A stretch of DNA of 64,000 nt. Origin: Nitrosopumilus sp. (GTDB lineage Archaea > Thermoproteota > Nitrososphaeria > Nitrososphaerales > Nitrosopumilaceae). The notes below the pieces were generated by a model that saw only the letters and a program-made list of their open reading frames with translations, was not told the origin of the DNA and searched no databases. Below, piece by piece: positions 18,852-38,775 of this stretch. A program made the position numbers and the translations under genes. Where the stretch lies: assembly GCA_965223425.1 (NCBI GenBank), contig OZ245003.1:864001-928000 (forward strand), read 5' to 3'. Within the stretch, counting starts at the first letter, position 1. Each line of letters begins with the position of its first letter.

Positions 18852-21800
18852 CTCCTACCTTTACACCTTTTTTTTCTTTATCTTCAAGGGCATCATGGAT
18901 TTCCTGAATCTTGGAATTTTTAGACCATACATGACATTTCTCAAATCCCATGTCTTTCCACTTTATCATGTTGTATCTGACATGCTCCCGATGACTGTTC
19001 ACTTCACTTATTGACTCCAACTCTACGCTGATTGGGATCTGGGAAGCATAGTCATAAACGACCAAGTCAGTCCTGTCCTGACCCTTGCGAATCTTTTGTG
19101 TAGCCATTGTAACGAACATCTCTTTTTTGAGATAGACATCAATTGCGGCCTTTGTTACCTCTTCGATGTCTGCAGCCGATCCTATCTCTGTCACATCATA
19201 GTCAAAATAGTCCTCTCGTGCCTTCTCTGTCAGGGCATATGGAGACATTCGAGTATCGTCTGTTCTTTTTAGAATTTTATCAGAGATCATCTGCTTTAGG
19301 ACGGCAAGCACTTCTGACCTGTTCTGAACCTTTAGCATGTCTACCATGTCTGCCTGCCTCATCTCTCTTTCTCTTAGCATGAGCATAATCTTCCACTCCA
19401 TCTGGGATGGAAACGGCACTGAAATGTTTTGTATCCATTTGCTTTTTTTGGCACTCATCTGCCTTGTGGCCGTATCCTCGACTTTGCCGCTGCCATACTT
19501 TTCTAGCTGACCTAGCACAAACTCGTCATAATCCTCGTCTACGGTAAGCAGGGCAGGCGGCTGATTCAGCCAGAACTGTACGGGTGGCGGCTGCTCCTCT
19601 CCAGGCGGCGCCTTTTCCCGTATGGTCCAATGAAAGTATTCCTGACTGGCAAACTGTTGCATGAGCTCCTTTTGAAACTGTGGATCCCATATCTGTGCAA
19701 TTCTGGCGGCATCCTTGCCGTTCACCTTCCCAATTAGCTGCGTTCCAGAGTTTCCTGTAATTATTCCAAGCTGCTTGTCACTGATCTGCTCAGTAGTCTG
19801 GTGTGATAGAATCAATCCCAGCCCTAAAGACCGCGCCTGCTCCAGCATAAGCTGTAAGACCTGTAAATCCTTGACTATCTGAAACTCGTCTAATGCCAGA
19901 ACAACCTGCGTTCTGTCTTTTTCATCTTGAACCTTGTTTGCCCGCTCTTGTATGGTAAACCACAGTTTCAGAATAAACGCCTGCATGGCAAGCGGCTGTA
20001 CGTGCTGTGGCATGTTAAGCGGGGATATTCGAACTACAGTATACCTTCCTGCCCGTATTATCTCATCAAAGTTTACAGTTCCTTTTCTTACAGAGAACAT
20101 TCTTTTGAGTACCGGGTCAGTAGCAAACTGCTCTATCCTGTTCAGTAGCGGCGTAAAGGCATCGCCCTTGAGCGTGGCAATACTGGTCAGTGCCTGCCTC
20201 ATCTCAGGATCCGGCGTGCCAAATGTCTGAATGATTTGTGGCAGGGCATCGTTTCCCCTGTCTTGTAGCTTTAGAATAATATCGTGAATGTCCAAAAACG
20301 TGGGCGCATCATGCTTCATGTAGATGTAAAACAGCAAGGCCCGAAATATCCTCTCCATCTGCACATATCTTGCAGACTGCTGGTACCATTCTTCTATCGT
20401 CTTCATAAAGTATCCGACATATCGGGATACTGTCTCCTCGCGCTCCTTTGACTGATATGCCGGAAGCTCTAGCGGGTTTATCGAGAATTTAGTCTCTTGC
20501 GGATCCAAAAAGTGTACCCGGCCACCTGATATGGTGTCCGGTTCGCACTGCTTGATGAATTTGTGAGAGTCATCGCCCTTTGGGTCCACATAGACAAACG
20601 CGTTTGCAAACTTGCCGTTGTTGTTCCAGGATTCCAAATGCTTTGCAAACAGCCTGATCAGCGAGGTCTTGCCGGAGCCTGATGCCCCAACCCCATAGAA
20701 GTGGTTTGCAAAGTCAGTAGGGGAGATGACTGCAGCATCAATGTCTTTTGATTTTTCTATATTGCCCCAGATTGACTGCCAGTCAAAGTCTTTTTTGATC
20801 TTGAAGAATCCGATGTTGGCCCCTGCCTTTTGTGATGGCTTTACTGGCAGTGATACGCCTCTGGTGGTTCCTATGTTTGGTGTGGTTGGATTTGGCAGGT
20901 GGATAAACAGCGGTATCTCTGAGAGGTTCAGTATAAGAAATGGTAATGGCCCCCTTTCACGATAGCTAAACAATCCCCTCTCAAAGTATTTGCCAACTGC
21001 TGAATCCAAAAATGGTCTTGGGTCTGGCAGCAATCGGGACTCAAATACCTCCAGCCTGCAATGTTTCTCCTTTCTGCCCTCAATCTTGATTGATGTCTTT
21101 TTGGGATTTTCGTGATTAAACTCGTCATAGTCGTACCGAAACTTTGTTAGGTGCTCATGGCTTGAGTGTATGTTCTCTATGGGCAGCGCCTCTATCTCAT
21201 CAAAGTGCAAGTCAAGATCAGAATCGCTCTTTATCAGACCGCGTATGCTCATCAAAAGATGCGCGCTCTGCATCTTGAGTGTGGCATGTTTTTGCAAACC
21301 TCCATAGTTGTTTGTAAAGTCGTATCCCAGTTCTGGATGCTCGTGTGGTTTTTTGTCCGGGTGCAGCAGAATCTCTGACGTGTTAAGGTAGTTTCCCCGC
21401 TTTATCTCGCGTGCCTTCTCATCCAGTCTTGTTACGTGCTTTCGCAAAAACGCGTTAAAGGAGTAATACCGGAACGTAAACTGTATCCATGCATACTTTG
21501 ATAACTGTATTGTATTTGCAATCTGCGTTATTATCTGGTGGGATTTTGTCTGATCAAATACGGCAGTGTAATGGCCGTGATATGTGCCGACATCAAATAT
21601 CTGATACTGGGATTTTTTGTCAAACCATTCTGGTGATGTACTGGACAGATCAGTAAACGCCGCGTTTGGATACATGTTTGCAAAGGCCTGCTTGAAGTTT
21701 GAGATGTCTTTGGCCTCGCCAACTAGGACAAACTGCAGGCTTTTTTCTGTGCTGTCCCACCACAGCTCAAAGCTCCTGATTCCTGCGTTTACTAGGCCGC

Positions 21801-21954
21801 CTGCGGCTGTAACTGCCTCCTTTTTGTCCATTGAAATTGGTATGATTACCGAGCATGCAGAGAGTTTTTCTGCAGCAGAAAGGAACTTTTTTACCTGACT
21901 TAGCTGCCCTTTTTGTTTCTTCTTGTTTGCAAGACGCCAGCGTTTTGAGCCCAA
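18844..21954 (-). CDS. VirD4/TraG-like coupling ATPase with C-terminal wHTH and PD-(D/E)xK-like domain (start revised to TTG 21954)
   Basis: GASGSGKT, VDPKGD, LALDEFQ, QARSLGLGLILSHQ; TATA-like TTTTAAAA about 25 nt upstream of the TTG; the annotated first 61 aa are an IS remnant. Confidence 0.8.
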   Translation of the reverse strand: MGSKRWRLANKKKQKGQLSQVKKFLSAAEKLSACSVIIPISMDKKEAVTAAGGLVNAGIRSFELWWDSTEKSLQFVLVGEAKDISNFKQAFANMYPNAAFTDLSSTSPEWFDKKSQYQIFDVGTYHGHYTAVFDQTKSHQIITQIANTIQLSKYAWIQFTFRYYSFNAFLRKHVTRLDEKAREIKRGNYLNTSEILLHPDKKPHEHPELGYDFTNNYGGLQKHATLKMQSAHLLMSIRGLIKSDSDLDLHFDEIEALPIENIHSSHEHLTKFRYDYDEFNHENPKKTSIKIEGRKEKHCRLEVFESRLLPDPRPFLDSAVGKYFERGLFSYRERGPLPFLILNLSEIPLFIHLPNPTTPNIGTTRGVSLPVKPSQKAGANIGFFKIKKDFDWQSIWGNIEKSKDIDAAVISPTDFANHFYGVGASGSGKTSLIRLFAKHLESWNNNGKFANAFVYVDPKGDDSHKFIKQCEPDTISGGRVHFLDPQETKFSINPLELPAYQSKEREETVSRYVGYFMKTIEEWYQQSARYVQMERIFRALLFYIYMKHDAPTFLDIHDIILKLQDRGNDALPQIIQTFGTPDPEMRQALTSIATLKGDAFTPLLNRIEQFATDPVLKRMFSVRKGTVNFDEIIRAGRYTVVRISPLNMPQHVQPLAMQAFILKLWFTIQERANKVQDEKDRTQVVLALDEFQIVKDLQVLQLMLEQARSLGLGLILSHQTTEQISDKQLGIITGNSGTQLIGKVNGKDAARIAQIWDPQFQKELMQQFASQEYFHWTIREKAPPGEEQPPPVQFWLNQPPALLTVDEDYDEFVLGQLEKYGSGKVEDTATRQMSAKKSKWIQNISVPFPSQMEWKIMLMLREREMRQADMVDMLKVQNRSEVLAVLKQMISDKILKRTDDTRMSPYALTEKAREDYFDYDVTEIGSAADIEEVTKAAIDVYLKKEMFVTMATQKIRKGQDRTDLVVYDYASQIPISVELESISEVNSHREHVRYNMIKWKDMGFEKCHVWSKNSKIQEIHDALEDKEKKGVKVGVI

Positions 21955-21999
21955 GTCACAAAAAATGATTAGTTTTTTTAAAAGGATAGTACAGGATGC

Positions 22000-22220
22000 A
22001 GAATGCTGCTGTTGCCTGGCAATCGTGGCGTGGTCAGGCACCGGCTCCCTCCAGGGCAGGTCCAGATGCGGCACCATGTTCTGCATGTCCCGGTACGTGG
22101 CATTCAGCATGACTGTCAGCATGCACACGCAGTGCATCTTGGCATCAGAGTGGACTGCCTTGCGCCCCCTGACGTTGTTTCTTGCCGACGGGGGATGGGT
22201 TGTTTTTGATCAAAAAAACT
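22000..22220 (-). pseudogene. IS5-like transposase fragment
   Basis: GC-rich segment encoding TYRDMQ...PVPDHATIAR. Confidence 0.5.
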
Positions 22221-22453
22221 AATTTGTCTGTCAGGAATCTTAGTTCCTGTGTGTGTACCAGATGGTAACTCTTCCAGTAACCATCTTTTCTTTTAATCAT
22301 TGAAGGAGCACACACACACACTCCTGATCCAAATGCATCGCTGTCAAAAAGACGTAATTCGGCGCTCAGAGGTAATTACGCAACAACTTCACTTCAAGGC
22401 CATAGTTTGATGTATAGCACTACAGGATTAGATACAGTGTCCAAAGAAGGATA

Positions 22454-23014
22454 TTATTGAGAAGTCATTTGTCGAATATTTGAAATAAACTGCTTTTCAT
22501 CTAATCCATTTTTGTATTCGTCGCCGGATGCTTGTCCATCTTGTAGTTGATACTTGCCCAAATTGTGACCCATAACAAAATAATGGTCGCCCATTTCAGA
22601 GTTTGGTTCATATCCTATAAACAACACCACATGTTCACCTACTTTGAAATTAGGATGTATTGCACTACTTGTCCAGTATTCATCAGTTTTTCCACCAACT
22701 GTCCTGACTTTTATTTTATCATCCGAATACTTGTTAGTGAATTCTTCCTCTATTACAATTACAGCGTCAGTAAAGACAATTGGTTTATTACCAAATTTTT
22801 CAGAATTTTCATCTACACTAACAATCACGTCTACTATTGTTCCCTTTATCACGTATTGCGCGTTCTCTGCAACATCATGTATTGACCAAGGATCGAGTAG
22901 GCCATCCACATGGGTTATTTGAGGGGAAGTATTCAGCATTGTAGTGGAGGTTATTCCACCGACAGCAACTACTAGAATTGCAGCTATAACGAGGCTTTGT
23001 TTTCTAGTAAACAT
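22454..23014 (-). CDS. Exported partner protein of metalloprotease (module A)
   Basis: N-terminal TM/signal; AQYVIKGTIV...VRTVGG...FKVGEHVVLFI; paralog of 34820-35401. Confidence 0.7.
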   Translation of the reverse strand: MFTRKQSLVIAAILVVAVGGITSTTMLNTSPQITHVDGLLDPWSIHDVAENAQYVIKGTIVDVIVSVDENSEKFGNKPIVFTDAVIVIEEEFTNKYSDDKIKVRTVGGKTDEYWTSSAIHPNFKVGEHVVLFIGYEPNSEMGDHYFVMGHNLGKYQLQDGQASGDEYKNGLDEKQFISNIRQMTSQ

Positions 23015-23597
23015 CGTCTAATTCCTCAGCATCGTCTGTTTGTATGTTTAGTGCATTACAATTGTATGCGCCCCACATCACAGTATGAGCCTGTGTGCCA
23101 CTGTTTGCATCCACAAACTGAATCCAATGGCCTAATTCATGAGTAGCTACGTATTCTATATTGGGGCTAGTCGAAACAGTGCATGTATTATCTGTTTGCC
23201 ATATTCTACCTGACGTATCAAAATCAAAATCAACATCGTTGATGTATCCAAGCCAGTCATAGTTAAAGGTGGTAAGTCCAATTGTGCCGCCTGAAAGATT
23301 GGTTGCACCCACTTCATGACTGCATGTATTCTGTTTGTTGAAACGAAATGATGAGGATTGATCGTTCCAATCAGATATTGCATCGTCTGTTTCATCTGCC
23401 ACATCCTCTCCATTACCAGTACTTCCGACAACATTCATGTTGTCAAATTCACTTTCAAGAAAACAAATATCCGTACTTCCCCAAAAATGTTTATGATTGT
23501 TATAAAGAGGATGATCAGCAAATGCAAATCCCGTCATACTTATTGTGAGCAACACTCCCACAAACGTAATTACTGTCACAACATTCTTCATAGCCAT
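23004..23597 (-). CDS. Secreted matrixin-like zinc metalloprotease (module A)
   Basis: Signal peptide; VATHELGHWIQFVD; Met-turn HTVMW. Confidence 0.7.
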   Translation of the reverse strand: MAMKNVVTVITFVGVLLTISMTGFAFADHPLYNNHKHFWGSTDICFLESEFDNMNVVGSTGNGEDVADETDDAISDWNDQSSSFRFNKQNTCSHEVGATNLSGGTIGLTTFNYDWLGYINDVDFDFDTSGRIWQTDNTCTVSTSPNIEYVATHELGHWIQFVDANSGTQAHTVMWGAYNCNALNIQTDDAEELDDVY

Positions 23598-23690
23598 TAA
23601 TTTCTTTAATCTGTTATATGTGACTTTATGCGCAATCAGTGCATGACCATGATATCCTTTATGTGGAAGACAGTAATGGGCGGTTTTTTA

Positions 23691-23993
23691 TCAGTTTGTC
23701 TGAGTAAGGCCTTTGATTCGTCTAAGTGAATATACAATCAGACCGATGCCAGATATTCCATAGCCAGTAACTAGCAGCGACAGCCTCAAATTAAAGTGGC
23801 AATCTTCTGCCTCCTCCTCTATGTTGCTGTCCATTGATAATTGTGAATACTCCACAGTATCCAACATGCACTGATACGTAAACAGATGAACCGAGTTTAC
23901 ATCCCCCGGGAGTTGCGGAAATGAGGAAAAAAATGAAAACAAGCACAGTAAAAATATCCCAGAGAACAATAATGCAAATGTTTTTTTGAACAT
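23691..23993 (-). CDS. Small two-TM membrane protein
   Basis: Hydrophobic termini around a Cys pair. Confidence 0.5.
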   Translation of the reverse strand: MFKKTFALLFSGIFLLCLFSFFSSFPQLPGDVNSVHLFTYQCMLDTVEYSQLSMDSNIEEEAEDCHFNLRLSLLVTGYGISGIGLIVYSLRRIKGLTQTN

Positions 23994-24059
23994 GGTAAAA
24001 AAAAGGAGTTATGGATATTCATTAATGCTTCGGACTGTCCAGTCTGTTGTGATTGTCCA

Positions 24060-24133
24060 TGGCCTAAAGGGAAGTTGAACCTCCGACAGGTGGGGTTTTA
24101 ATCCACTACGCTACCTGACTGCGTCACCGGCCC
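24060..24133 (-). tRNA. Degenerate tRNA-like gene, apparent anticodon AAA
   Basis: GGGCCGG TG ACGC AGTCAGGTA GCGT A GTGGA TTAAAAC CCCAC CTGTC GGAGG TTCAACT TCCCT TTAGGCC A: 74 nt with tRNA spacing, intact D stem and GGTTCAA; mismatched acceptor and T stems. Confidence 0.5.
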
Positions 24134-24192
24134 ACAACACACATTGCATCTGGCAATATTAAAAACACATACACACACATCAAACCAGCTGA

Positions 24193-25023
24193 TTACCCTA
24201 CAAGCTTGTAAAGGCCGCGGGCATTACTCATTACAGGATCATCTGGAATCAACATCTCAAAGTCCTTCAGTCTTGACAAGAGCTCCTTGTTCATTCCAGG
24301 AATCAGCAGACCGCCACCAGATATTGCTATTGGATACTGGTTGTTGTAATTCTTTGACATTTCACATATCTCGCGTGTAAGATTCTCTGCTAGAATCTTG
24401 GAATATTTCCTGCATGTGTCCTTGTTCTGAAACAATTGCTTTACGTCTAGGTGTGCAAACTTGCCAATCTTTTTTGTAACAAAGTCTGATGCCCACTGTG
24501 AGCTATCCCCATCAATGACCTCCATGCTGTCAATTACAATTATTTCAGTTGTTCCCTGTCCTATGGATACTACAATTCCGCGCTTTCTGCCAAGATCCAA
24601 TATGGTGCCACATGCTTGTGGCACTGCAACACATTGCTCTACATTGAGAATTTTTTTGACCATCTTTGTGATCATATCTTTGCTGTCATACGCATAGTAT
24701 GGCAATCCCACAACAATCTTCACTTTCTCGTTGACATCTACTGGAGTCTTTGCGTTTTTGTATATCTGGTTCATTGATTCCTGTATTAGCATCTCGACTT
24801 GTTTTGTGTATTTTGAGTCAGGCTTTCCCCTGTTGATTGGCCGTATTGCAGATGTTCCCATGGTGTTTATTATGTTTAGAGCAGATTCGCCTACTGCCTC
24901 AGTTGTATTGCCGGCCCAGCTTCCGTGTATTCTTTTTACATAAACTGAGGGAAATCTCACAGAGCCATAGTCTGAAACACATTTGACAAAGCCTGTTCCA
25001 AGGTCTAATCCTATCTTTAGCAC
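24193..25023 (-). CDS. ParM/StbA-like actin-family ATPase
   Basis: IGLDLGTGFVK, VSIGQGTTE, ISGGG. Confidence 0.8.
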   Translation of the reverse strand: MLKIGLDLGTGFVKCVSDYGSVRFPSVYVKRIHGSWAGNTTEAVGESALNIINTMGTSAIRPINRGKPDSKYTKQVEMLIQESMNQIYKNAKTPVDVNEKVKIVVGLPYYAYDSKDMITKMVKKILNVEQCVAVPQACGTILDLGRKRGIVVSIGQGTTEIIVIDSMEVIDGDSSQWASDFVTKKIGKFAHLDVKQLFQNKDTCRKYSKILAENLTREICEMSKNYNNQYPIAISGGGLLIPGMNKELLSRLKDFEMLIPDDPVMSNARGLYKLVG

Positions 25024-25584
25024 AGACCCAAATCAGGTTATAAATTTAAGCCGTTTTTTAGACAACAGGTTACATGGAATATTTTTCCATGATCTCAGAA
25101 ATAACTGGAGATACACGCTTTTTGTTTTCTAACTGGTCATCAATTTTGTCCAAATCCTTGGATAACCCATCTTGTTCCTGAGTTTTTTTAGTTATCTTTG
25201 TGTCTTTTTCAGCACGTTTTGCTTTATCTCTTGTCTCATGCTTCTCCTTGCCTAATTTTTCAATATCTTGATCCAGCTTGATATGGCAATGTGTGCTGCC
25301 CTCCCGGTTTGCACTCTACAGTAGAGCCGCTGTACCGGAAGGCACAACACATCAAAAAAAATAAAACACGTTTAAGACGCAAAACTCTTCACGCGGTAAA
25401 CAAACTTTTCTTAAAGTCATCAGTATCGCGTACAAATCCGCATTCCTTGCAGTACTGCCAAGACCTGTGTCGCAGTATACGCAGTGGCGCATCATAGCTT
25501 ACAGAATACATCCTGCCATAACAGTACGGACATTGCAGCGGTATCTCTATTCTCATCAATGAAAAATAAAGTTTTCAATAAAAG

Positions 25585-26238
25585 TCACACAAGCATTATT
25601 GAAACCATTATTGCAATTACAAACGCTGCAAGCATAAACGGAAATGCAGGCATTGCCCATGTCACAAACACTCCTGTCCTTTCCTCATAGTCAGATTCTG
25701 GAGACGGTGTCTTGAGGCTGATGATCCTTTTGCCATCCCTCACACGCTCTGCACAGAAGGTAAACCTCTCATGAGCCCTTTTCTTGTGTGTTGAATAAAA
25801 CGCCATGATCTTGACTGGTGCAGAGCACTCTACATTCCCAAACAACTGCCTGTGACGAACCAAGTCCTCAACGTTGTATCGCAGATTGTAAAAAAATGCA
25901 GCAAAATGCTCCAATATCAACCCCCCAAAGAACACTGCAGCAGGATTCATCACGATCCCAAAGGATACCGGATATGCAACAGATATCACCAGTATTGCAA
26001 GTGCGTCTGCATCGCCCATCGGAAATATTTTCCACACCAAAAACGCAGTCACGCATCCCGCTGCAACTGCAAACATCACAAAAAAATCAACCTCGCTCCA
26101 GTCAAACACATACAGAATCGCGCCGATGCCTCCCCCTGCAACCCAGAGATAGTCAGGTATCTGCCTTGATCTTACATCATGGTATGATGCAATACAAAGT
26201 ATTGAAAGCATTAGGGCCATCCGTGGTATCTCTAGCAT
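25585..26238 (-). CDS. Prepilin peptidase (A24/PibD-like); start revised to ATG 26238
   Basis: SYHDVRSRQIPD, MGDADA, C-terminal MPAFPF, multiple TM segments. Confidence 0.85.
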   Translation of the reverse strand: MLEIPRMALMLSILCIASYHDVRSRQIPDYLWVAGGGIGAILYVFDWSEVDFFVMFAVAAGCVTAFLVWKIFPMGDADALAILVISVAYPVSFGIVMNPAAVFFGGLILEHFAAFFYNLRYNVEDLVRHRQLFGNVECSAPVKIMAFYSTHKKRAHERFTFCAERVRDGKRIISLKTPSPESDYEERTGVFVTWAMPAFPFMLAAFVIAIMVSIMLV

Positions 26239-26270
26239 CACAATAAAACCGCAGATTAGATAAAAACAGT

Positions 26271-26897
26271 CTAGTGCGGGTTTATCGTCTGTATTGCACC
26301 AGGATCCTCTAGTACAATTTTGTTTAGCGTATTTTCCAATCCAGCAATCCAGCAATGCAGCTCATCTAATGCCTCCTGATGCATCTCAAGTGTGTCTAGA
26401 AAATCTGCATTGATCTGAATGACATGATTTGAGATGTGTTTTGTCATCTCCTTGGAACAGAGAGCAAAGCCTGCATTGGCTATTGTCTTGTAGGAATAAA
26501 TTCCTTTGAAGGTATTTGCAATATCATGCAGGGCGTAAAATGATCTAGAGTTGTTTTTTAGTTGGTTTTTGTGCAGAGCATAGGCCTCAGATATTATGCA
26601 CAGACACAAAAAAGAAATTTCAAACTTGTGGCACAAGACTTTGCATCTGCCATGCAGGGTAAGCTTGTATCTTGCTCCCGGATGACAGTTGTCGACTTTT
26701 TCTATATAATGTTGTTTTGCCAATCTCACCATCAATGAATAATCTACACCAATATTCTGAACATCCCTGCTTGCAAGCATTTTGTGCGGATAAAATTTTG
26801 TGAGTACATTTGTGGTAATGGAATTTGTTCTAAAAGTATGCCTGTTACGTCTAAGATGATACAGCATGTGTGAGGAATAGTCATTTGTGCACGACAT
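26271..26897 (-). CDS. Hypothetical protein, possible winged helix
   Basis: LVRLAKQHYIEK...YKLTLHG-like wHTH pattern; co-oriented with neighbours. Confidence 0.5.
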   Translation of the reverse strand: MSCTNDYSSHMLYHLRRNRHTFRTNSITTNVLTKFYPHKMLASRDVQNIGVDYSLMVRLAKQHYIEKVDNCHPGARYKLTLHGRCKVLCHKFEISFLCLCIISEAYALHKNQLKNNSRSFYALHDIANTFKGIYSYKTIANAGFALCSKEMTKHISNHVIQINADFLDTLEMHQEALDELHCWIAGLENTLNKIVLEDPGAIQTINPH

Positions 26898-26904
26898 TTA
26901 GGAA

Positions 26905-28002
26905 TCACTTCTTAGATCGTTTGGGAGAAGACAGTATCACATATTTTTCTTCCAGTCCCTTTGCCTTTGCCTTTGCAAATGCATTGTAACCTTGAGTTGC
27001 ATTACATTTGCGGATGCGTACTGATTCCATGTCTTCAACATCAAGATAACTTATCACATGGTCAGGAAGCACGTGAGTTGATTTTCCCAAGTCATCAGTA
27101 ATTGAATATGTTCCATTTGTCTCCTTTGTCATTGCAACACGGCCTGTCTTTTTGTGAACTAGCAGATCCGGGTGTGTGCCCTTTATTGGAACGTAGATCA
27201 AGTTTGGATCCTCGCGAATGTATCTGTCTGCCTTTTGCACTGCCTTGGCTGAGGGCTTTGCCTTTGGCCTGTTCTTTGATTTTAGATCCTTTATCTCTTC
27301 ATATTTTGCTATCCTCTCTTCTGTAGGGGAAATCTTTCTCTCTCTGCCAAACTCCTTTAGAGTTGTTGCAAGCGCATCAGAGCTTGGCCATGAAAACTTT
27401 TCATCAGATGTCACTTTGGATATCGTAAATGACTTTATCTGGAGTGCTGCCTGATACTGTTCTTTTTTTGCAATCTTTGAGAGATGGTTGATATAGTATA
27501 CCGGAGTTACAACAAAATACATCTTTTGTGATATCTCATCGATTAGCTCCAGGAGCACGTCTCTTGCCTCATCTGCAATCTCTGCACGTATGGTGGTGAG
27601 CAGTTCGGGGCGCTTGTCAAGCCACAGCATCTTGCATACCTCCCACCTGTCTGTGCCGTCTTGTGCAAGATAGTCTATTACCTGCCGAATCTTGAGTGGA
27701 TCAATTGTCTGCGGATTGAAATTTTTGCGCACATGTGCTATCAAAAGATCCCGCATGCTAGAATAGTCAGTTATGAGAGCATCAGTCTTGCGCACACTTG
27801 CCTTTTTGAGTCCGAGTATGGTCTCAAATTCATTAACGGCGTATAATACGGAGTTTACCCTGCCTACAGATACCGTCTGAATCTCATCGGGATTTGTTTT
27901 GGCTTTTTTGCATATTATCTGGACTAGCTTGGCCGAAGTGTTTTTTGTATATGCTGGGAGCTCCTGTATGGATGAGACGTTTACCTGCTCTGTCTGACTC
28001 AT
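26905..28002 (-). CDS. Hypothetical basic protein
   Basis: 365 aa ORF starting 1 nt after the TFB paralog stop. Confidence 0.65.
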   Translation of the reverse strand: MSQTEQVNVSSIQELPAYTKNTSAKLVQIICKKAKTNPDEIQTVSVGRVNSVLYAVNEFETILGLKKASVRKTDALITDYSSMRDLLIAHVRKNFNPQTIDPLKIRQVIDYLAQDGTDRWEVCKMLWLDKRPELLTTIRAEIADEARDVLLELIDEISQKMYFVVTPVYYINHLSKIAKKEQYQAALQIKSFTISKVTSDEKFSWPSSDALATTLKEFGRERKISPTEERIAKYEEIKDLKSKNRPKAKPSAKAVQKADRYIREDPNLIYVPIKGTHPDLLVHKKTGRVAMTKETNGTYSITDDLGKSTHVLPDHVISYLDVEDMESVRIRKCNATQGYNAFAKAKAKGLEEKYVILSSPKRSKK

Positions 28003-28003
28003 G

Positions 28004-28714
28004 CTAGTTTACCCCCATCTCATCTAGTGCGATATCTACTGCCCGCCTTGCCCTGTTCTGATGATTTCCATGAAGGCATGAGAAATTATTCATTACCCTT
28101 ACCTTGAATCTGTCATAATCCCTCGAGTCTGCAAACAGATGCTGTTTGCGTGATATTGCTAGATTGAGATAATAGCTTGACGAGTGGCCCTCGTTTGTAT
28201 TGATTCCAAGGTGCAGTGCGTCATCGTGTATTTCAGATATCACACTTAGCATGCTCGGGGTGTTTTTAACGCACAATACTGACTGCACTGCTTCTTGAAT
28301 CTGCATCTCGTCTATTGCCTGACTTGATTCCCTGCATGCGACATATATGGAAAACGTGGCACACTTTGCCCTAGTGTAGTATGTCTTGCTTCGAAGCAGG
28401 TGGTATATCTTCCATGCCCTCTGTTGAATGGAGTTTGAGAGTTTTAGCTTGCTGCATATGTTGGAAAACTCTGATGCACTAGAAGAATAGATGTGAATTT
28501 TTTTGTTTACCACTTTCATGTCTTTTGGGTCACATCCGTTTTCCACCTGGTGGTACAGTGGAATTACGCTGTTTTGCGTAACCAGTGAATCATCAAACAT
28601 CTTTTCTTCTAAGACAACTCCACACTTGCAGACAGATTCGCCATCAGATGTGACAGTTATGTCATTGGGCCTGTTGTGCTTGCATGTAATCAATAATTGA
28701 AACAGTTTTTTCAT
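28004..28714 (-). CDS. Divergent transcription factor B (TFIIB) paralog
   Basis: Zn-ribbon DGESVCKCGVVLEE; cyclin-repeat ICSKLKL...ATFSIYVACRE. Confidence 0.7.
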   Translation of the reverse strand: MKKLFQLLITCKHNRPNDITVTSDGESVCKCGVVLEEKMFDDSLVTQNSVIPLYHQVENGCDPKDMKVVNKKIHIYSSSASEFSNICSKLKLSNSIQQRAWKIYHLLRSKTYYTRAKCATFSIYVACRESSQAIDEMQIQEAVQSVLCVKNTPSMLSVISEIHDDALHLGINTNEGHSSSYYLNLAISRKQHLFADSRDYDRFKVRVMNNFSCLHGNHQNRARRAVDIALDEMGVN

Positions 28715-28810
28715 GTGGAATCATCATAAATGCGTTAAGATATTTAACGAGTTTGGAATTTGATCCACTTTGAATACACCACTTTGAGTACACAAGGCAG
28801 TGCGCTACTT

Positions 28811-30175
28811 CAGTAGTTCCCAGATGTAGATTTGTGCCCAGATGTAGGTTTATGCCCAGATGCCGGTGCGTTACCGCATATTGCAATGCAAAGATCCAGA
28901 TTAGGTTACGGTGTGCAAGATGTCATGAGCACTCAAACACACGACGATCTGATCGCACACCAGTACGACATAGCATCAAACCGGTTTAAAATCTTGCGCT
29001 CGTCGTTTCAAAAGCTTGGCATGCCAATGTCTGAGAGGCACAACGCCGTATACGGATGCAATGACATACTGGACGTGCCAATCAGGGCGTCTGAGAGAAA
29101 CACGTTTGTAGAATCCCTCGTACGGCACAACAGGCTTCAAGACACGGGTGCACGTACGCCTGATGCAGACCTGGTCATGTCTGCAGTCCGTGGCGTCAAA
29201 CCGGCAGACGTGCAGGCCTGGTGTGCAAGGACGCTGGCACGCACGGTGCGGCACGCCCGCCATACAGGAATGCTGCAGGACATCGACGCCATTGCAATAG
29301 ACGTTACGGACATACCATACCATGGAGAGCAGCTGCAGGAGCATACAAGAAAGTCGCGTCCAAGGGCAGGAACATCCACGTTTCTCTCGTATGTCGCAGT
29401 GCACGGAGTCGGCAGGGACTCCTCGCAGATTGTCCTGGAATCGAAGCTGCTGCCGGCAAAGGAAAAACTGGCCGATTTTATAGCCAAAACACGCACGAAA
29501 ATCCTCAGAGGGGGCGCACACTCAAAGACTGTGTTCCTGTACGACCGCGCCTTTTACAACGTTGACTGCATGACAGAGGCAGGAAAGGGCGGGTGCCGCT
29601 ACATTATGCCTGTCATCATGAACTCCAAGATCAAGAGGATAGTCAAGATGTACAAGGACGGAAAGGCAAGCCAGGTATCGCAGCAGTCAATGACCAACAA
29701 AGACGGCGTAACTGTGACCTACAACCTTGTAATTGTCAAAAGAGACAGGAAGAAGAAGAAAAAGGGGGAGGGGGAAGAGGAGGAGGAGCAATACATTGCG
29801 TTTGCAACAAACATTCCCATCAGGAGCGCCAGAGCCATGACAGGCATCATACCGGAGCAGTACCGCAAGAGATGGGGCATCGAGACGGGGTTTCGCGTCA
29901 TAAAGGAGATCATGGGCAGGACATGCAGCAACTCCCTGTCTGTGAGGCTGCTGATGTTTTACCTGCCGCTGCTGCTGTACAACCTGTGGAGGATTGCCAG
30001 GTTCTGCCTTGATGCGGGAAAGAGGCATGGAAGAGTGTCTTCTGCGGGAAAAAAACTCACCATGGCGTTGTTTATCGTGTACATTACAAGCAGAAACGAG
30101 TTGTTTGTCAATGATCGAGGCAAGTAGAACCGATGCCAGTTGCGGTTGCGGTAAATCTACATCTGGGAACTACTG
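28811..30175 (+). mobile_element. ISH3-like insertion sequence
   Basis: 23-bp perfect TIR cagtagttcccagatgtagattt / aaatctacatctgggaactactg; 4-bp TSD ACTT. Confidence 0.9.
28832..30127 (+). CDS. ISH3-like DDE transposase (start probably 28886 or 28925)
   Basis: AIDVTDIPYHG, LYDRAFY, YRKRWGIETGFR. Confidence 0.9.
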   Translation: MCPDVGLCPDAGALPHIAMQRSRLGYGVQDVMSTQTHDDLIAHQYDIASNRFKILRSSFQKLGMPMSERHNAVYGCNDILDVPIRASERNTFVESLVRHNRLQDTGARTPDADLVMSAVRGVKPADVQAWCARTLARTVRHARHTGMLQDIDAIAIDVTDIPYHGEQLQEHTRKSRPRAGTSTFLSYVAVHGVGRDSSQIVLESKLLPAKEKLADFIAKTRTKILRGGAHSKTVFLYDRAFYNVDCMTEAGKGGCRYIMPVIMNSKIKRIVKMYKDGKASQVSQQSMTNKDGVTVTYNLVIVKRDRKKKKKGEGEEEEEQYIAFATNIPIRSARAMTGIIPEQYRKRWGIETGFRVIKEIMGRTCSNSLSVRLLMFYLPLLLYNLWRIARFCLDAGKRHGRVSSAGKKLTMALFIVYITSRNELFVNDRGK

Positions 30176-30264
30176 ACTTGGCACGCCAAAGGATATCCCC
30201 TTTGAAACATCTGAAGTTGCCTGCTTTGGATTGCTGTTTTTAACAGGTTCGTCTTTTCAAACCG

Positions 30265-30534
30265 TTGGCAGAAGAATTGTCTAAAATTGCGCCGTACAGG
30301 GTCAAGATCAATGCAACACCATGCATTCTAGTCACAAAAAACGACTCTGTTCTCATATCCTTTGAGAGACTAAAAAAATCATTTGAAATTCCACACGATA
30401 CAGTTCGGTGCATCCAGCATCGCAGAAACTCGATACTGCTCAACGCAGAGAAAAACACAAAGCTTGTGGCATATGTGATTACAACATCTAATGCAAAAAG
30501 GATATACAAAAAAATAATCAGTCAGATGGAATAG
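30265..30534 (+). CDS. Small hypothetical protein (possibly a fragment)
   Basis: 89 aa beta-rich ORF next to the IS. Confidence 0.35.
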   Translation: MAEELSKIAPYRVKINATPCILVTKNDSVLISFERLKKSFEIPHDTVRCIQHRRNSILLNAEKNTKLVAYVITTSNAKRIYKKIISQME

Positions 30535-30874
30535 ATATTGTATCCATCGCTCCCAGCAATTGTTTGTACTGCTTGGTTCTAAACTCAAAGAAGCACTCTG
30601 TATCCTCTAGCCACGTTATGCGAAATTTTTGCGTGCCAAACAGTACTGATCCGACTGGTGCAAACTTTTTGATGACTTTACGTGGTATGAAATTAAGGTA
30701 GATCCCCCTCCCATCTACCTCGTATGCTACTGCCATGTTTGTAATGCACAAAACTCCGTTTCCCTGATTTGAGTTTGCCTGGATTTCAAGCAGCTTTCTC
30801 TCACAGATATTTTTGCGTACAAATATGGTCATGTCAACCTTCTGCGAGTCATTTGGATGCCCCGCCTGCCGCAC
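30518..30874 (-). CDS. Small PH-fold-like hypothetical protein
   Basis: GVLCITNMAVAYE pattern; follows the VirB6-like gene. Confidence 0.45.
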   Translation of the reverse strand: MRQAGHPNDSQKVDMTIFVRKNICERKLLEIQANSNQGNGVLCITNMAVAYEVDGRGIYLNFIPRKVIKKFAPVGSVLFGTQKFRITWLEDTECFFEFRTKQYKQLLGAMDTISIPSD

Positions 30875-32288
30875 TATACATGCCTTGATTGTTCACTGCA
30901 GATGCTCCGGCCAGACTTGCACCGGACGTGGATGTTCCAACATTTGCAGATAAGAACCTGCCAGGCTGTTGTATGGCTCCTCCAAGTGCGCTGTTTGCAG
31001 AGCCGTGTGAAAAGCCTCGCATGATTGCCTTCATGCCAGTAGAGCCTGCCACGCTTGCAGATGTAATGGATGTCGATACCATGTTGCCTACCCTAGTTGA
31101 GAGGTTTCCAAGCATCGGCGATAGCATGACTGGGAAAAACACCGCCAAGAACCCTATGCTTAACAGCTGAAACCACATGCGAAGTGGCGGCATGTTCTGC
31201 GAATCAATCGTGGATAACCCCACAGACAAGACAATGGCTGACATTATTGGCGCCATGGATAGCCCTATCAGGTTCTGCTGGAACATGTCTGATATGCGGC
31301 CAGTGTTGATCCACGGAATCAGGCCTATTGCAGATACCAACGGAAACGAAACGATAATGATTTCAGTTAGCATCACGCGAATGGCAGACAAGACAAACAT
31401 CATTGCAGTCATGAACATCACGGCAAATCCCTTGAATAGCGCAAGCAGTACGTTTACGATATACTCCTCTCCAAAGAACGGATTCTGCAGTGCATCGTTC
31501 CACGACTCTTGGCTCAGGACCGATGTCTGGTTGAATCCCCCCGCATCAAAGATATCGACTGGGTCTACTGACGTATTGCCATTCACACTGCACGTTACAG
31601 AGCCCATCATGCACCATAGGTCCGCCGTCTTGCCGTGCGGGTCCCCTCCAAAGGGATCCATGAGGTACAACGAGGATGACTCGATGACTAGTGCCGTCAT
31701 GTCCCACAGGTACGGTAGCACAAGATAGATTGGAATCAGCACAATCATCTTTGCAATTATCCCGTATGCCGTCCCCTGTCGTACTATGTTGAACTCTTCA
31801 AAAAAATATGACAGTCCTGCAAGCATCAAAAGTATGACAAATATTCCAAGCGCAATCTTTACCATCAGCCCATACATTGCCAAGGATGGAAACGACTCGG
31901 CAAACTCTTGTTCTGTCACCTCCATGGAATCTTCCTGATTGCCGATGACTACAGAACCTCCCCCCGATGTCAGAACAGGCAGGTATTCTGGTATTCTCTG
32001 CCCGTCTTCTGTATAGTGAAATATGGTCGGCATGTCTGCCAGCAGATCCGGAACCATCGGGCCGCCAACTGTGACGAAGAGCTGAGATATTGCAATCATT
32101 GAGGCAAATACCAGTATTCCCATCCCAAGCATTAGCGGCATGGTAAAGAGAAAGCCGCGTCTTTTCTTGCTACGAATCCTTGTAACGTGAGTAATCAGTT
32201 TTGATGCCAGCACAGCCTCAAAACTTTGGATGCAATTTAAGAGAGAAATCTCAGGGCTGTTTTTTTGGGAATGTTTTTTGCCAGTCAC
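30849..32288 (-). CDS. VirB6/TrbL-like polytopic membrane protein
   Basis: About 7-8 TM segments, low-complexity Gly/Ala/Ser tail, conjugation context. Confidence 0.65.
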   Translation of the reverse strand: MTGKKHSQKNSPEISLLNCIQSFEAVLASKLITHVTRIRSKKRRGFLFTMPLMLGMGILVFASMIAISQLFVTVGGPMVPDLLADMPTIFHYTEDGQRIPEYLPVLTSGGGSVVIGNQEDSMEVTEQEFAESFPSLAMYGLMVKIALGIFVILLMLAGLSYFFEEFNIVRQGTAYGIIAKMIVLIPIYLVLPYLWDMTALVIESSSLYLMDPFGGDPHGKTADLWCMMGSVTCSVNGNTSVDPVDIFDAGGFNQTSVLSQESWNDALQNPFFGEEYIVNVLLALFKGFAVMFMTAMMFVLSAIRVMLTEIIIVSFPLVSAIGLIPWINTGRISDMFQQNLIGLSMAPIMSAIVLSVGLSTIDSQNMPPLRMWFQLLSIGFLAVFFPVMLSPMLGNLSTRVGNMVSTSITSASVAGSTGMKAIMRGFSHGSANSALGGAIQQPGRFLSANVGTSTSGASLAGASAVNNQGMYSAAGGASK

Positions 32289-32698
32289 AGAATTGTTACG
32301 ATGGCTACTGCACTAGGATAATCGGTTGAGAAAATTTTGTAGATTCCTGGAGGAACCCGGTTGCCTTGAAGATCTGTTCGAGTCCACTGAAATGACATTT
32401 CAGAATCTGGATGCAGAGTAGTCTCCGCCTCACCTGCAGCATCTGGATATAGACGCTGATCCAACGTGTTGGTTATTGTCATGCTGTACGAGGTATCTGC
32501 AAACGATACTGTTTTGTTTCCAGAATTTACTAGATGAAATTTTATCTGCTCACCTATCTGATAATGGGATTTTTCTGTAGTTATGTGCAAGTATCCTTTA
32601 GGTGTGTTGAAATCTTCCACTGTGAGATAAACGCCGGTTACTGATGCGCCAAATACTGCGGCAACCACAATGCCGATTACTAGTCTCTTTGATGACAC
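32285..32698 (-). CDS. Membrane-anchored Ig-like (BsuPI-like) protein
   Basis: N-terminal TM; YQIGEQIKFHLVNSG...FQW...GNRVPPGIY. Confidence 0.55.
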   Translation of the reverse strand: MSSKRLVIGIVVAAVFGASVTGVYLTVEDFNTPKGYLHITTEKSHYQIGEQIKFHLVNSGNKTVSFADTSYSMTITNTLDQRLYPDAAGEAETTLHPDSEMSFQWTRTDLQGNRVPPGIYKIFSTDYPSAVAIVTIL

Positions 32699-32758
32699 TC
32701 AATATGTTTTCCCAACTTTTCATATAATGGTTTTTTTGCGCTTATAGTCGACTCGCAT

Positions 32759-33172
32759 ATGGAACTTGTGAACCAGATAATTGCGGCAGTCATGCTTTTT
32801 GGGATAGTAACTGCAGTCTTTGCGCCGATAATAGCAGAGTCCGGCTTGCAGATATTCTCAAAGTCTGTCAGCATATCAGATGCTATGGAATCATCAAGAG
32901 ACAGGACAGGCCAGATAATGGTTGCTACAAACACACAGCAGCAAGACGACACCGTCTCCGTATATCTTTCAAATATTGGCATTGCAGATATCCGTATTCA
33001 TACAGTTCTTGTGGATGGTCTAGAGTCATCATTTGTTTTGAAAAATCAGGATGATGTGCCAACTGATGTGTTTCATATAGACGAGCTTGCAATCTTGGAG
33101 ATTCAGGGTACAGGTGACGCAGTGCAGGTAATTACAGATAGTGGCAAGCTCTTTGAGTTTTTTGTACGATGA
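32759..33172 (+). CDS. Archaeal pilin-like protein
   Basis: Hydrophobic N-terminal helix, VYLSNIG, VITDSG. Confidence 0.65.
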   Translation: MELVNQIIAAVMLFGIVTAVFAPIIAESGLQIFSKSVSISDAMESSRDRTGQIMVATNTQQQDDTVSVYLSNIGIADIRIHTVLVDGLESSFVLKNQDDVPTDVFHIDELAILEIQGTGDAVQVITDSGKLFEFFVR

Positions 33173-33731
33173 TTTTCTGATCTGCCTGAAATTACTGGAG
33201 CTGTTTACAGGGCTCTGTAGCGTTATGGTGACCTGAAATATGGATCTTCTCTGGATTGAAAATCTATACGCACAACGATCAATTAACACTTGACAACATC
33301 TTAAAAAAACTATTTTTTGGTGATCAGTTCGGGGTTGTCGCCAAATTCGACCAAATGATAATTTTGTAATTTTTCACGCGTATTGATCAGGTAGGCGTGG
33401 GTTTCCAATGACTCGCCATAAGAAACGTGATCAGTACTGGAAGTACCATCACGATGCCCACACCCGAGAACTGGATTTTCTCACATCCCATAGTTTCTTT
33501 GATTGTGGATAATTCGTCCTGTACATGCCAGAAGGTCTGGCGCGGGACGCAAGCTGGTACACGGCAAAAACAAGCTTGCATTTCTCTGCATACTATGGTG
33601 TGCCTTGACTTTACATTCAGGGACATGGAGGATCCCCCCCCCTCTAGAACGCAGTTATGCAGTTAAATGATTTATAAGAATTCCAGTCAAATACAATACT
33701 GTCATCCCAAGCCCGTCAATAAAAGACTGCA

Positions 33732-34000
33732 TCAGTCTTTGCCGTAGACTACCTTGTGATCACCTACAACAATCAACAAAATGATTTTTTGTGGATTGGC
33801 AACCTTGTAGATTAATCGGCATGACCGTCCAATCTCATAGGCAAAGTATCCATATACTTTCCTTTTTTAGAATTCCTAAATCGGCAGGGAATTCTGATTT
33901 TGCAAGGGCAAGTATGGCCTCATCTGTTTGCTTTTGCAGTCGCGAAGAAAGTTTCTTGTAACTGACCACAAAGAGTTTGGTTCTTTCCGTATAGCCACAA
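33732..34000 (-). pseudogene. RelE/ParE-like toxin, frameshifted
   Basis: ERTKLFVVSYKKL...(frameshift)...YEIGRSCRLIYKV...VGDHKVVYGKD. Confidence 0.55.
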
Positions 34001-34002
34001 AA

Positions 34003-34170
34003 TCACTTATGTTCGTGAAGATCAGCTATCAACTCTTCAGGAGTTTTAAATGACTTTGGTCGGTCTGCGCCTGATTCGTACTGCTCTACTATGTATTCTT
34101 CGTTTGGCCAGAGATCGTTCTCATCTGTGACTTGTTTTGCCTTTGACATGTTCTTTTGTTTGTTCTGCAT
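34003..34170 (-). CDS. Putative antitoxin (55 aa)
   Basis: Acidic, ends FKTPEELIADLH; abuts the RelE-like remnant. Confidence 0.5.
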   Translation of the reverse strand: MQNKQKNMSKAKQVTDENDLWPNEEYIVEQYESGADRPKSFKTPEELIADLHEHK

Positions 34171-34251
34171 CCTAAAAAATATTAGGAGTCAGAAATTCCC
34201 ACGAGTTCTCGCCTTATCTTTTTGGGGATAAAATGGACTCGTTTGTTGAAT

Positions 34252-34827
34252 TTAGATTCGTTTTCTGACTTGCCATACTACAATTACAGGTGTCGCAATG
34301 TATATTCCTACAATTAATCCAATAACTGACACACCAAAGAAAATTACTTCATTCTCAGAACCCTCATTTACAAGGGTCATAATAGATAGAGTGGAAATAA
34401 TAGGCGTAATGAAAATCTTGACAGCTTCCTTGAAAATTGGATTTTCGTTCTCCATTTGTGCCACCTGTGGTGAAAAAGAATAGTAGACTGAATTAAATCC
34501 ATCCATAAACAACGCACCGGAATATGTACCAAGTAGGATGTTGTCTCGAACCTCTCTTAGCATTTGGACTTGCGGTGCCAGTTCTGAACCATAGGAGGCG
34601 GTGGCAATCAGACAGTCTACACTAGGTTTTTCTCCCGGAGGTAATTCGTAGGCAGGATCGCACTTTCCATCTACAAGTATCGTTTCAGGACCGCATACTA
34701 CTTTGTCACCTGGCAGGCCTTCGGTAAGTTCCTCTTGAGCAACAATCAAAGGCATTGTAATTGTTGTTGATATTAATAAGAATATGATTAATTGATTTGT
34801 AGTAAAAAAAATAGAAGGACTATTCAT
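34252..34827 (-). CDS. CFI-box-CTERM domain surface protein
   Basis: CGPETILVDGKC; CLIATASYGSELAPQVQMLREVRDN; C-terminal TM. Confidence 0.85.
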   Translation of the reverse strand: MNSPSIFFTTNQLIIFLLISTTITMPLIVAQEELTEGLPGDKVVCGPETILVDGKCDPAYELPPGEKPSVDCLIATASYGSELAPQVQMLREVRDNILLGTYSGALFMDGFNSVYYSFSPQVAQMENENPIFKEAVKIFITPIISTLSIMTLVNEGSENEVIFFGVSVIGLIVGIYIATPVIVVWQVRKRI

Positions 34828-35401
34828 TTTTATCCGATCTATATCTCTTGATTTCGTCTTTCAAATCTGATTCGTTCTTTTTTTCCGCATCTAATTGTTT
34901 TTTGGCTTTACCAAAATCATCTATGGTATATTTGCCTGTGAGCAGTCCTGCCACATAATAATTATCTCCCCAGATTGACTCTGGTTCTGGACCTGCAACA
35001 AATACTAGAACATGTTCGCCTTCTTCAAATGAAGCATCAATATGTGAAATGGTCTCAGCATCTCCTACTTTGCCACCTTGGATTCTTACAGTGATGTATT
35101 TTTCTTCGTATTCATCAAAGAGATCTTCTTCGACTTCAATTTTGACATCTGAGAAAATGTATTCCTCATTATCACGTATTACTATTGTTGAAACGATTCG
35201 TTGGACTTCTCCACTAATTGCGTAATTTGCCCCTTGTGACAGTTCCTCTAATGAATAATCTGGGATTATACCTTTGAGTATGATAGTCTCACTGGCTTCA
35301 ACGTTATCAGATTGCTCAAATATAGACACACCGATAGAAATACCAGTGATTGCAACGATTGCTATTAAAGATAATTTAATTTTGTTTTGCATTTTTATCA
35401 C
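34820..35401 (-). CDS. Exported partner protein of metalloprotease (module B)
   Basis: SLEELSQGANYAISGEV...VRIQGG...FEEGEHVLVFV; paralog of 22454-23014. Confidence 0.7.
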   Translation of the reverse strand: MIKMQNKIKLSLIAIVAITGISIGVSIFEQSDNVEASETIILKGIIPDYSLEELSQGANYAISGEVQRIVSTIVIRDNEEYIFSDVKIEVEEDLFDEYEEKYITVRIQGGKVGDAETISHIDASFEEGEHVLVFVAGPEPESIWGDNYYVAGLLTGKYTIDDFGKAKKQLDAEKKNESDLKDEIKRYRSDKNE

Positions 35402-36022
35402 CTAATGGTTTATGTCTAGAGCGATTTCGTCGGCAGATTGAACGTCACTAAGAATACTGGAACACCAAGGTCTCATTACAGAATGATCATAAAAGACATG
35501 CCAATGATGTTTCAAGCCAAATGAATGACCAACCTCATGATTTGCTATCCATTCAATGTCTTTATTGTTGTTAGAACAGACATTTACATCAGAACCAAAC
35601 CCTCTATCAGTTGTATATTCAATAAGGGAATGGTGAATTTTGGTTGGTTGACCTGATACAGTCCAAGTTCTTTCTTGTGCAGAAGAGCCGTATTGACCTA
35701 ATGCTGCTGATTCATGACTAATATAATATACAGAAGGGCATGAACCGTCATCATCTCTAACATCAATACTGCTACTGATATTGTCTAGTGCATCATTGTA
35801 AGTGTCTGCAACTTTGTCTAATTCGGTTTCTACTACAGATCGTTGGTTTATTGAACCATCTATTTCGATACTATTTAGTTCAGATGTATAACAAAATTCT
35901 GGATCATTTTGCCAGTAATAATTTTCTACTGAAACTGCAGTGGCAAGTACGTTTGGTATTGAAAATGCCACAATGAGGGCACTTAATGCAATTATGGAAG
36001 TTGTTGTTTTTATGTTTTTCAC
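35402..36022 (-). CDS. Secreted matrixin-like zinc metalloprotease (module B)
   Basis: Signal peptide; HEVGHSFGLKH metzincin motif; Met-turn HSVMRP. Confidence 0.8.
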   Translation of the reverse strand: MKNIKTTTSIIALSALIVAFSIPNVLATAVSVENYYWQNDPEFCYTSELNSIEIDGSINQRSVVETELDKVADTYNDALDNISSSIDVRDDDGSCPSVYYISHESAALGQYGSSAQERTWTVSGQPTKIHHSLIEYTTDRGFGSDVNVCSNNNKDIEWIANHEVGHSFGLKHHWHVFYDHSVMRPWCSSILSDVQSADEIALDINH

Positions 36023-36075
36023 GTTATTATGATATTCGATAATATGTCACTATATATAATATCAATTTCTTTCAG

Positions 36076-36367
36076 CTAACCACAAACCAATGGAAAGCTG
36101 GAGCGCCTGCACGACGAAATACAGCGGAAGCTTCCGGAGTTTGTGGCAATCATGATGCGCAAAAGCGATCCGGTGGACCTGCTCATGGACTGGTACAACA
36201 ACCGTAGGCCCCACATGTCACTGAACAGAAAGCAGAGGGAAACGCCTGCACAGGCCTTTGTGCGCAAGATGCCGCCAAAGGGGGGAATAGTAGTTGATGA
36301 GCAGACAGGGGAGGAATATGAAACCAAGTAGCAGGGTGTGTGTGTGAACTACTTTTAGGATCCCACA
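36076..36367 (+). mobile_element. IS481-like 3' remnant
   Basis: PQTNGKLERLHDEI...WYNNRRPHMSL; segment ends in ...CACA. Confidence 0.65.
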
Positions 36368-38772: not shown

Positions 38773-38775
38773 GAC

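Follow-up and report, generated by a model that had tools for sequence, protein, structure and literature searches.

In this study, we analysed a 64,000-nucleotide stretch of a Nitrosopumilus sp. genome (contig OZ245003.1, positions 864,001 to 928,000; hereafter the window) that carries two cassettes, modules A and B, in each of which a gene for a matrixin-like protease of about 200 residues is paired with a gene for an exported partner protein (Table 1). An earlier reading of the DNA letters alone (the original prediction) had described these as paralogous cassettes of a protease and a TIMP-like partner, possibly protease-inhibitor pairs, with a common promoter motif and with a CFI-box surface protein behind partner B, and all five open reading frames (ORFs) were confirmed where it had placed them, the CFI-box assignment included. 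Partner A overlaps the stop codon of protease A by 11 nt, no base separates partner B from the stop of protease B, and an 8-nt overlap joins the end of partner B to the CFI-box gene, which is probably co-transcribed with it; inspection by eye of the ORF lists for five GTDB loci showed no CFI-box gene next to the partner. Proteases and partners alike are presumably exported, judging from their N-terminal hydrophobic segments. The term paralogous was borne out for the proteins, which are homologous between the modules (22% identity, E 2e-4, for the proteases; 32%, E 4e-23, for the partners), and not for the DNA, where no similarity past 12-nt words was found. In addition, A and B fell into separate clades in the protease tree as well as in the partner tree, the latter a quick tree. 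A recent tandem duplication was rejected on these three grounds, and the comparisons indicate that A and B are old, separate subfamilies and not the outcome of a local duplication.

Table 1. Features of the window discussed in the text, with positions counted from its first nucleotide.
Feature	Position	Strand	Remarks
Protease A, exported minimal metzincin (M10-like), 197 aa	23004..23597	-	HELGHWIQFVD, Met-turn, no propeptide, 4 Cys
Partner A, 186 aa, hydrophobic N-terminal segment and Cys-free NTR/TIMP-fold domain	22454..23014	-	Fold inferred via homology to partner B
Protease B, exported minimal metzincin, 206 aa	35402..36022	-	Canonical HEVGHSFGLKH, Met-turn, no propeptide, 4 Cys
Partner B, 193 aa, hydrophobic N-terminal segment, linker, Cys-free NTR/TIMP-fold domain (residues 44-193)	34820..35401	-	
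CFI-box-CTERM surface protein	34252..34827	-	NCBIfam NF041770, E 7.7e-20
Shared 13-mer upstream of protease A	23616..23628		Possible operator or promoter element
Shared 13-mer upstream of protease B	36042..36054		Short AT-rich stretch between start codon and transposase remnant
VirD4/TraG-like coupling ATPase of host element	18844..22137	-	
VirB4-like ATPase of host element	40525..42342	-	
Tyrosine integrase/recombinase	62903..63991	-	
rve-type transposase C-terminus, truncated, bordering module B	36080..36328	+	Pfam rve_3, E 3.1e-6

The matches of the proteases to the Pfam Matrixin model were weak (24.3 bits for protease B and 21.1 bits for protease A, the latter below the cut-off of 24), and close homologues were few, numbering five others for protease B and seven others for protease A. 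The zinc motif of protease B is fully canonical. That of protease A has the HEXXH core, Gln where the motif Gly is expected and, as had been predicted, Asp in place of the third zinc His. These features are shared within the group: Gln, Thr or Trp replaces the motif Gly in all nine A-type sequences, and Asp is the third ligand in seven of the eight A-clade sequences (P0022 has His) as well as at locus L004 of another archaeon of the phylum. A one-off inactivating mutation was therefore rejected, and the alignment identifies the Asp as a clade trait of A-type proteases. The His, Glu and His of the core motif region together with the Met-turn (Val-Met) were invariant in 15 of 15 aligned archaeal proteases; the catalytic Glu is Glu154 in protease A and Glu163 in protease B. 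Since Asp ligands and natural replacements of the motif Gly by Asn, Thr or Trp are reported in other zincins (PMC3890501), protease A is more probably an active enzyme of Asp type than an inactive protein. It shares the Asp ligand and the Met-turn with snapalysin (M7) and other Asp-ligand zincins (PMC3890501). It differs in having no motif Gly as well and in its closest relationships, which are with the His-type B clade and with matrixin clusters. A poor model of protease A (pLDDT, the predicted local distance difference test, of 59) gave matrix metalloproteinases (MMPs) as its top five fold matches at Z 6.5-7.3, a range that possibly marks a common arrangement; MMP-9, -20, -2 and -12 were the best of them and snapalysin reached Z 5.9. 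The best protease matches among PDB sequences were MMP-10 and MMP-8, at E about 1e-3 to 4e-3. The cysteine-switch motif (PRCG) was absent from all 25 proteases, and the stretch between signal peptide and catalytic domain is too short for a propeptide, so that the protease is probably active once folded.

For the partner, the predicted resemblance to the TIMP/NTR OB-fold was upheld. An AlphaFold2 model of partner B, built on an alignment of 122 family members (pLDDT 89), was compared with 48,161 solved chains, and the best structural matches were the NtA domain of agrin (Z 11.2, root-mean-square deviation (rmsd) 2.6, 111 aligned residues) and N-TIMP-3 (Z 11.1, rmsd 2.6, 117 aligned). The NTR domain of PCOLCE1 came third (Z 9.6), TIMP-1 reached Z 8.8 and generic OB folds 6.8 or less; by title or known family, 12 of the 13 top rows were of NTR, TIMP or C345C type. 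A Foldseek search of the PDB, suggested with the original prediction, likewise ranked NtA and TIMP first, with no match at E 0.001. The partner is thus predicted with high confidence to have the NTR/TIMP fold, an OB-type barrel with N- and C-terminal helices. Against TIMP N-domains the scores lay at Z 8-11 with 5-11% identity, and Gly44 of partner B superposed on residue 1 of TIMP (Cys1), where the alignment starts in every TIMP-1, -2 and -3 row, the superposition ranges giving the first and last aligned residues only. Agrin NtA, PCOLCE1 NTR and complement C345C, non-inhibitory NTR domains with the same fold as the partner (Z 7-12), are disulfide-bonded modules of large animal proteins. TIMP, NtA and NTR rows in the ESM Atlas scored 0.77-0.82 and serve as leads only; a single borderline row from a viral structure library was rejected (rmsd 23).

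The partner family is large and lacks a Pfam or NCBIfam model at the thresholds used. A profile from 13 close sequences matched 3812 clusters (50% identity) at E 0.001 and 554 at 1e-10. Searches of the partner against PDB sequences, NCBIfam, PHROGs and PADLOC returned nothing significant, and neither did the family against Pfam, where NtA matched two of the 122 members with a best E of 0.036. Both partners in the window are free of Cys, which from column 40 onward is likewise missing in 98 of 122 family members. The column equivalent to Cys1 is preceded by a median of 40 residues across the 122 members; an N-terminal hydrophobic segment is present in 113 of them, followed by a linker with a median of 18 residues (3 or fewer in only one of the 113). 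In TIMP, the free amino group of Cys1 is described as the means of inhibition, and MMP inhibition is lost when this end is extended; TIMP-3 with eight added alanines lost inhibition of six out of six enzymes, one or two alanines being tolerated by ADAM17 and ADAMTS (PMC3003256). Since it has no Cys, and since the Cys1-equivalent position lies about 40 residues inside the chain, after a hydrophobic anchor, the partner as made probably cannot inhibit in the manner of TIMP, and a free N-terminus at this position could arise after proteolysis. A long archaeal form of the partner (300-340 aa; L002:5476-6474, P0012, P0048, P0058 and P0064) with an extra Cys-containing N-terminal region was also observed, and the L002 copy has no protease nearby.

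A pair of this type is already published for Listeria and related Bacillota, as the metalloprotease Mtz and its partner Tim (PMC8235301). We identified one of our loci (L011) with the Listeria mtz-tim locus by shared flanking genes, lipobox, Met-turn motif, Glu136 and gene order. Tim scored 18.3 bits on the broad family profile (best of 1000 shuffles, 9.6), and hhalign aligned it to the partner family at 85% and E 6e-6, so the sequence comparisons place the partner as a remote homologue of Tim; because of this link, the system of the window is not categorically new. Cleavage of Tim by Mtz is reported at about residues 49-55 (PMC8235301, section 4.3), as is a lysis-sensitising phenotype in Listeria that requires both genes and active Mtz (PMC8235301). 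Tim Gly55 aligns with Gly44 of partner B, and the reported cut region maps to the Gly44 segment. In a post hoc comparison, Gly occupied this column in 12 of 14 paired or fused partners against none of four unpaired ones, L010 and L017 being left out as near-copies of L009. Because the Cys1 position of TIMP, a conserved Gly and the cut region published for Tim coincide, a possible origin of the TIMP mechanism can be probed precisely and at low cost. Listeria has a second, orphan member of the partner family beside mogR (L009:5001-5609, L010 and L017), which outscores Tim on the archaeal profiles.

Conservation of the gene pair, a check proposed with the original prediction, was found in archaea and bacteria. 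One peptide pattern scanned against GTDB matched 35 stretches, of which five loci (L001 to L005) were confirmed. The protease lies directly upstream of the partner in three of these five Nitrososphaerota loci: intact and Asp-type in L004, frameshifted and B-type in L001, and reduced to an A-type relic of 28 residues in L003. No protease was present within about 6 kb of the partner in L002 and L005. The L003 partner grouped with A (99*), beside its A-type relic, and the L001 partner fell in the 96* clade of B, beside a B-type protease, so that both genes of these cassettes group with A and B, respectively. As a circumstantial sign, the longest contig of three B-type protease clusters equals in size that of a partner cluster. 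Single-chain fusions of matrixin and partner, in both orders, were found in three of 27 long homologues scanned. In bacteria, a distant family member led to a Brevibacillus plasmid with a matrixin followed by a partner (54 bits on the family profile), and this partner as query gave ten records from a plasmid collection, all Bacillota. A gene with the matrixin motif lies directly upstream in six of the ten (L008, L011, L013-L016); no such gene precedes the partner in L012 or in the three copies of a single Listeria gene adjacent to mogR. P0146 as query also led to two matrixins on Bacillota plasmids (L006 and L007), neither with a partner close by. Among phages, no match was obtained with P0121, P0146, P0131 or the Brevibacillus matrixin; a further search matched six phage records. 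P0070, a protein of 185 aa with a protease-like N-terminus joined to a partner C-terminus, may be a deletion product or an assembly chimera of such a cassette.

By gene content, the window looks like a Nitrososphaerota integrative conjugative element (ICE). Besides the VirD4-like and VirB4-like ATPases, it encodes a FlaI-type (FlaI/PilT) ATPase, a TadC-like protein, pilins, a prepilin peptidase, a TFIIB homologue, an actin-like protein and a tyrosine integrase; every one of these matches stays under the curated cut-offs of the named models, yet they are consistent, and the set agrees with the thaumarchaeal ICE components given in PMC6563490. The nearest named relatives come from Nitrosopumilus and other Nitrosopumilaceae genomes. 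An origin from a sponge symbiont was also considered and was not borne out. No attachment-site pair was identified and no tRNA gene is present within the 64 kb, and the ends of the element may fall outside the window. Two degraded remnants resembling insertion sequences (IS), at 22117-22294 and 33420-33596, lie downstream of the two modules and are related to each other (tblastx E 4.7e-8). The former seems to contribute the initial codons of the long VirD4-like ORF, whose true start is thus probably further in. Because of these bordering remnants and a low GC content (38% for module A and 37% for module B, against 46-49% for the VirD4-, VirB4- and VirB6-like genes), both modules look like cargo.

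We propose, with a probability of about 0.5, that each cassette is an archaeal module of Mtz-Tim type carried on the ICE, in which the protease binds and clips its tethered partner and thereby frees the TIMP-like domain. Both proteins would be exported, as their N-terminal hydrophobic segments suggest, and the protease, in which no propeptide was observed, would probably be active after folding. The N-terminal segment and linker would hold the partner, with its predicted NTR/TIMP fold, at or near the membrane. The cognate protease would then bind the N-terminal ridge of the partner as a substrate and cut at, or immediately ahead of, the Gly that corresponds to TIMP Cys1, a step drawn from Listeria Mtz-Tim and from the mapping of positions. 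The freed domain, now with a TIMP-like N-terminus, would either stay on the enzyme as a product inhibitor or act on targets in the cell envelope. Of these parts, a direct interaction between cognate protease and partner is likely; cleavage of the partner by the protease is somewhat favoured by the analysis; inhibition of the protease by its cleaved partner is possible and is put forward tentatively. More generally, the cysteine-free TIMP-fold family of archaea and bacteria might consist of self-arming inhibitors, in which the cognate matrixin, itself free of a propeptide, cuts its tethered partner at the Cys1-equivalent Gly and the new N-terminus binds the zinc, a generalisation that we regard as doubtful. 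If true, the family would represent a prokaryotic precursor of the animal MMP-TIMP pair or a parallel to it, and co-diverged His-type and Asp-type enzyme-partner specificities would lie side by side on one mobile element.

Several points weigh against this proposal. The link to Tim is remote and was reached through two bridging searches, and narrow archaeal profiles scored Tim at 6.2 and 3.9 bits, under the shuffled maxima of 8.3 and 7.6. The phenotype cannot carry over directly to archaea, because Tim is a lipoprotein in a cell with peptidoglycan. The published cut site of Tim is given as a 7-residue region, not as one bond; only 57 of the 122 family members have Gly44, and the contrast between paired and unpaired partners is, besides being post hoc, small and phylogenetically non-independent. 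Agrin NtA, which gave the best fold match, binds laminin and is not an inhibitor. In addition, protease A may be inactive, since its motif Gly is absent and its model is poor, and the partner domain also works or persists alone, since two of five archaeal and four of ten bacterial loci have a partner without a protease nearby.

The intact, membrane-tethered partner could instead be a classical cognate inhibitor or immunity protein, a loop or the uncut ridge blocking the protease and shielding the surface of the producer, as in the Tannerella potempins. A plain protease-inhibitor or effector-immunity pair was also the interpretation of the original prediction, and in that form it was not supported: the partner has neither Cys nor a free N-terminus at the Cys1 position, and the Listeria partner is a substrate. 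Mtz-Tim is in fact the opposite of immunity, because both genes and the protease activity are needed for the phenotype; co-expression produces it and Tim gets cleaved (PMC8235301). Moreover, eight extra residues suffice to abolish TIMP-3 inhibition and the partners carry a median of 40 ahead of the Cys1-equivalent column, and pure immunity is harder to reconcile with the single-chain fusions. We consider a partner that acts uncut in this way unlikely. The same fusions, together with others to PKD and further surface domains, suit a non-inhibitory adaptor that anchors the protease at the surface, aids its folding or brings it to a substrate, comparable to the NTR domains of agrin and PCOLCE; agrin NtA ties with TIMP-3 as best match, with PCOLCE NTR third, and 24 of the 27 long homologues scanned have no protease domain. 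However, the superposition with TIMP starts exactly at the Gly that is enriched in paired members, and the characterised homologue, Tim, is cleaved, which leaves the adaptor improbable.

The modules could also be working parts of conjugation, serving S-layer opening, mating-pair formation or entry exclusion. The VirD4-like gene directly follows module A on the same strand, and both modules stand among pilin, VirB4 and prepilin-peptidase genes. Nevertheless, they differ from the conjugation genes in GC content and are flanked by IS remnants, as described above; conjugation genes were not evident by eye within 6 kb in the ORF lists of L001, L003 and L004; and such proteases are not among the conserved ICE components as presented in PMC6563490. 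A role in conjugation is very improbable.

Compared with Listeria Mtz-Tim, the window pairs share the order of protease then partner, similar sizes, the lack of a propeptide, HEXXHXXGXXH/D with a Met-turn and the association with mobile elements. They differ in an archaeal host without peptidoglycan, in partners without a lipobox, in four conserved Cys in the proteases, in an Asp-ligand, Gly-less subclade and in adjoining genes that do not include a cI/cro switch. With the animal MMP-TIMP pair (MEROPS M10A and I35), the resemblance lies in a protease whose sequence matches and, on a poor model, fold matches point to the MMP catalytic domain, and in a partner that superposes on the TIMP N-domain; in contrast, the archaeal protease has no cysteine-switch propeptide or hemopexin domain, and the partner has no disulfides, no TIMP C-domain and about 40 residues ahead of the Cys1 position. 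The KLIKK peptidases of Tannerella and their potempins likewise combine a secreted MMP-like peptidase with a co-encoded, surface-tethered beta-barrel partner (PMC9890683). Potempins are described as lipoproteins of 98-132 residues that are encoded upstream of the peptidase and inhibit by loops (PMC9890683), and thus differ from the window partners in gene order, mechanism and size; the 50 rows listed in each of the two structural comparisons included no potempin, although a weaker match may exist. TIMP/netrin domains were listed as absent from Archaea in a 2012 survey (PMC3516229, Table 1). Archaea are not mentioned in the main text of PMC8235301, and a term search of PMC6790972, on an archaeal sponge symbiont, returned neither TIMP nor M10. 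No archaeal example of the pair was found in the literature searched, which included few subscription papers and to which the supplements of PMC8235301 and PMC6563490 could add some. Our results extend the pair of matrixin and TIMP-fold partner from Listeria and related Bacillota to Archaea, and two divergent cognate pairs on one element permit a natural cross-specificity experiment.

The promoter motif of the original prediction is real as a match, and a promoter role found no support. The 13-mer occurs exactly twice in the 64 kb, 18 nt (A) and 19 nt (B) from the start codons, a result of modest significance because the pattern was defined from these same two sites. Mechanical ORF calling gave 53 starts and 1378 pairs; with the exclusion of 52 in which an upstream region ran off the window, 1326 were compared, and in four of them, including that of the two proteases, the upstream regions shared at least 11 of 13 positions at an offset of 2 nt or less. 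Shuffled sequences reached 11 of 13 in 47 of 5000 cases with an offset up to 2 and in 99 of 2000 with any offset. At two mismatches, 15 matches were found against 7.7 expected, mostly in coding DNA, and directly ahead of the homologous protease genes in L001 and L004 the 13-mer was absent even when up to three mismatches were allowed. A sigma-70 promoter scan, a method unsuited to archaea, stayed at chance level. The 13-mer may be a shared operator, a reading with weak support. An IS end was rejected, as the 13-mer lies outside the transposase remnant and is absent from the listed inverted repeats; the site of an ICE-wide regulon was rejected as well, there being two exact copies only.

Some other features of the window were also observed. 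An actin-like (MreB/ParM-type) gene at 24193-25023 lies two genes upstream of module A, inside an archaeal ICE. An IS element at 28810-30176, which encodes a DDE transposase and is bounded by perfect inverted repeats of 24 nt, is inserted just upstream of the TFIIB homologue. Upstream of module B, at 36388-39948, are two P-loop ATPase genes with 32-35% GC (794 aa with a helix-turn-helix and a TPR-like part, and 390 aa), which are STAND-like and gave no clear match in PADLOC. The small-gene pairs at 33730-34140 and 46573-47060 are related to each other, and the copy adjoining module B appears broken; we take them to resemble toxin-antitoxin modules. A complete-looking DNA phosphorothioation cluster (DndB, C, D, E and a cysteine desulfurase) at 2517-16631 adjoins PbeA and PbeC defence genes and HNH nucleases. 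Finally, a degenerate array of 9-nt repeats of AGTGCATTT type at 18382-18507, upstream of an AbrB/MazE-like gene, possibly represents iterons, an operator or the origin of the element, and two-copy direct repeats occur near pilin and integrase genes at 60967-61052 (43 nt, tandem) and 62657-62764 (36 nt, spaced 72).

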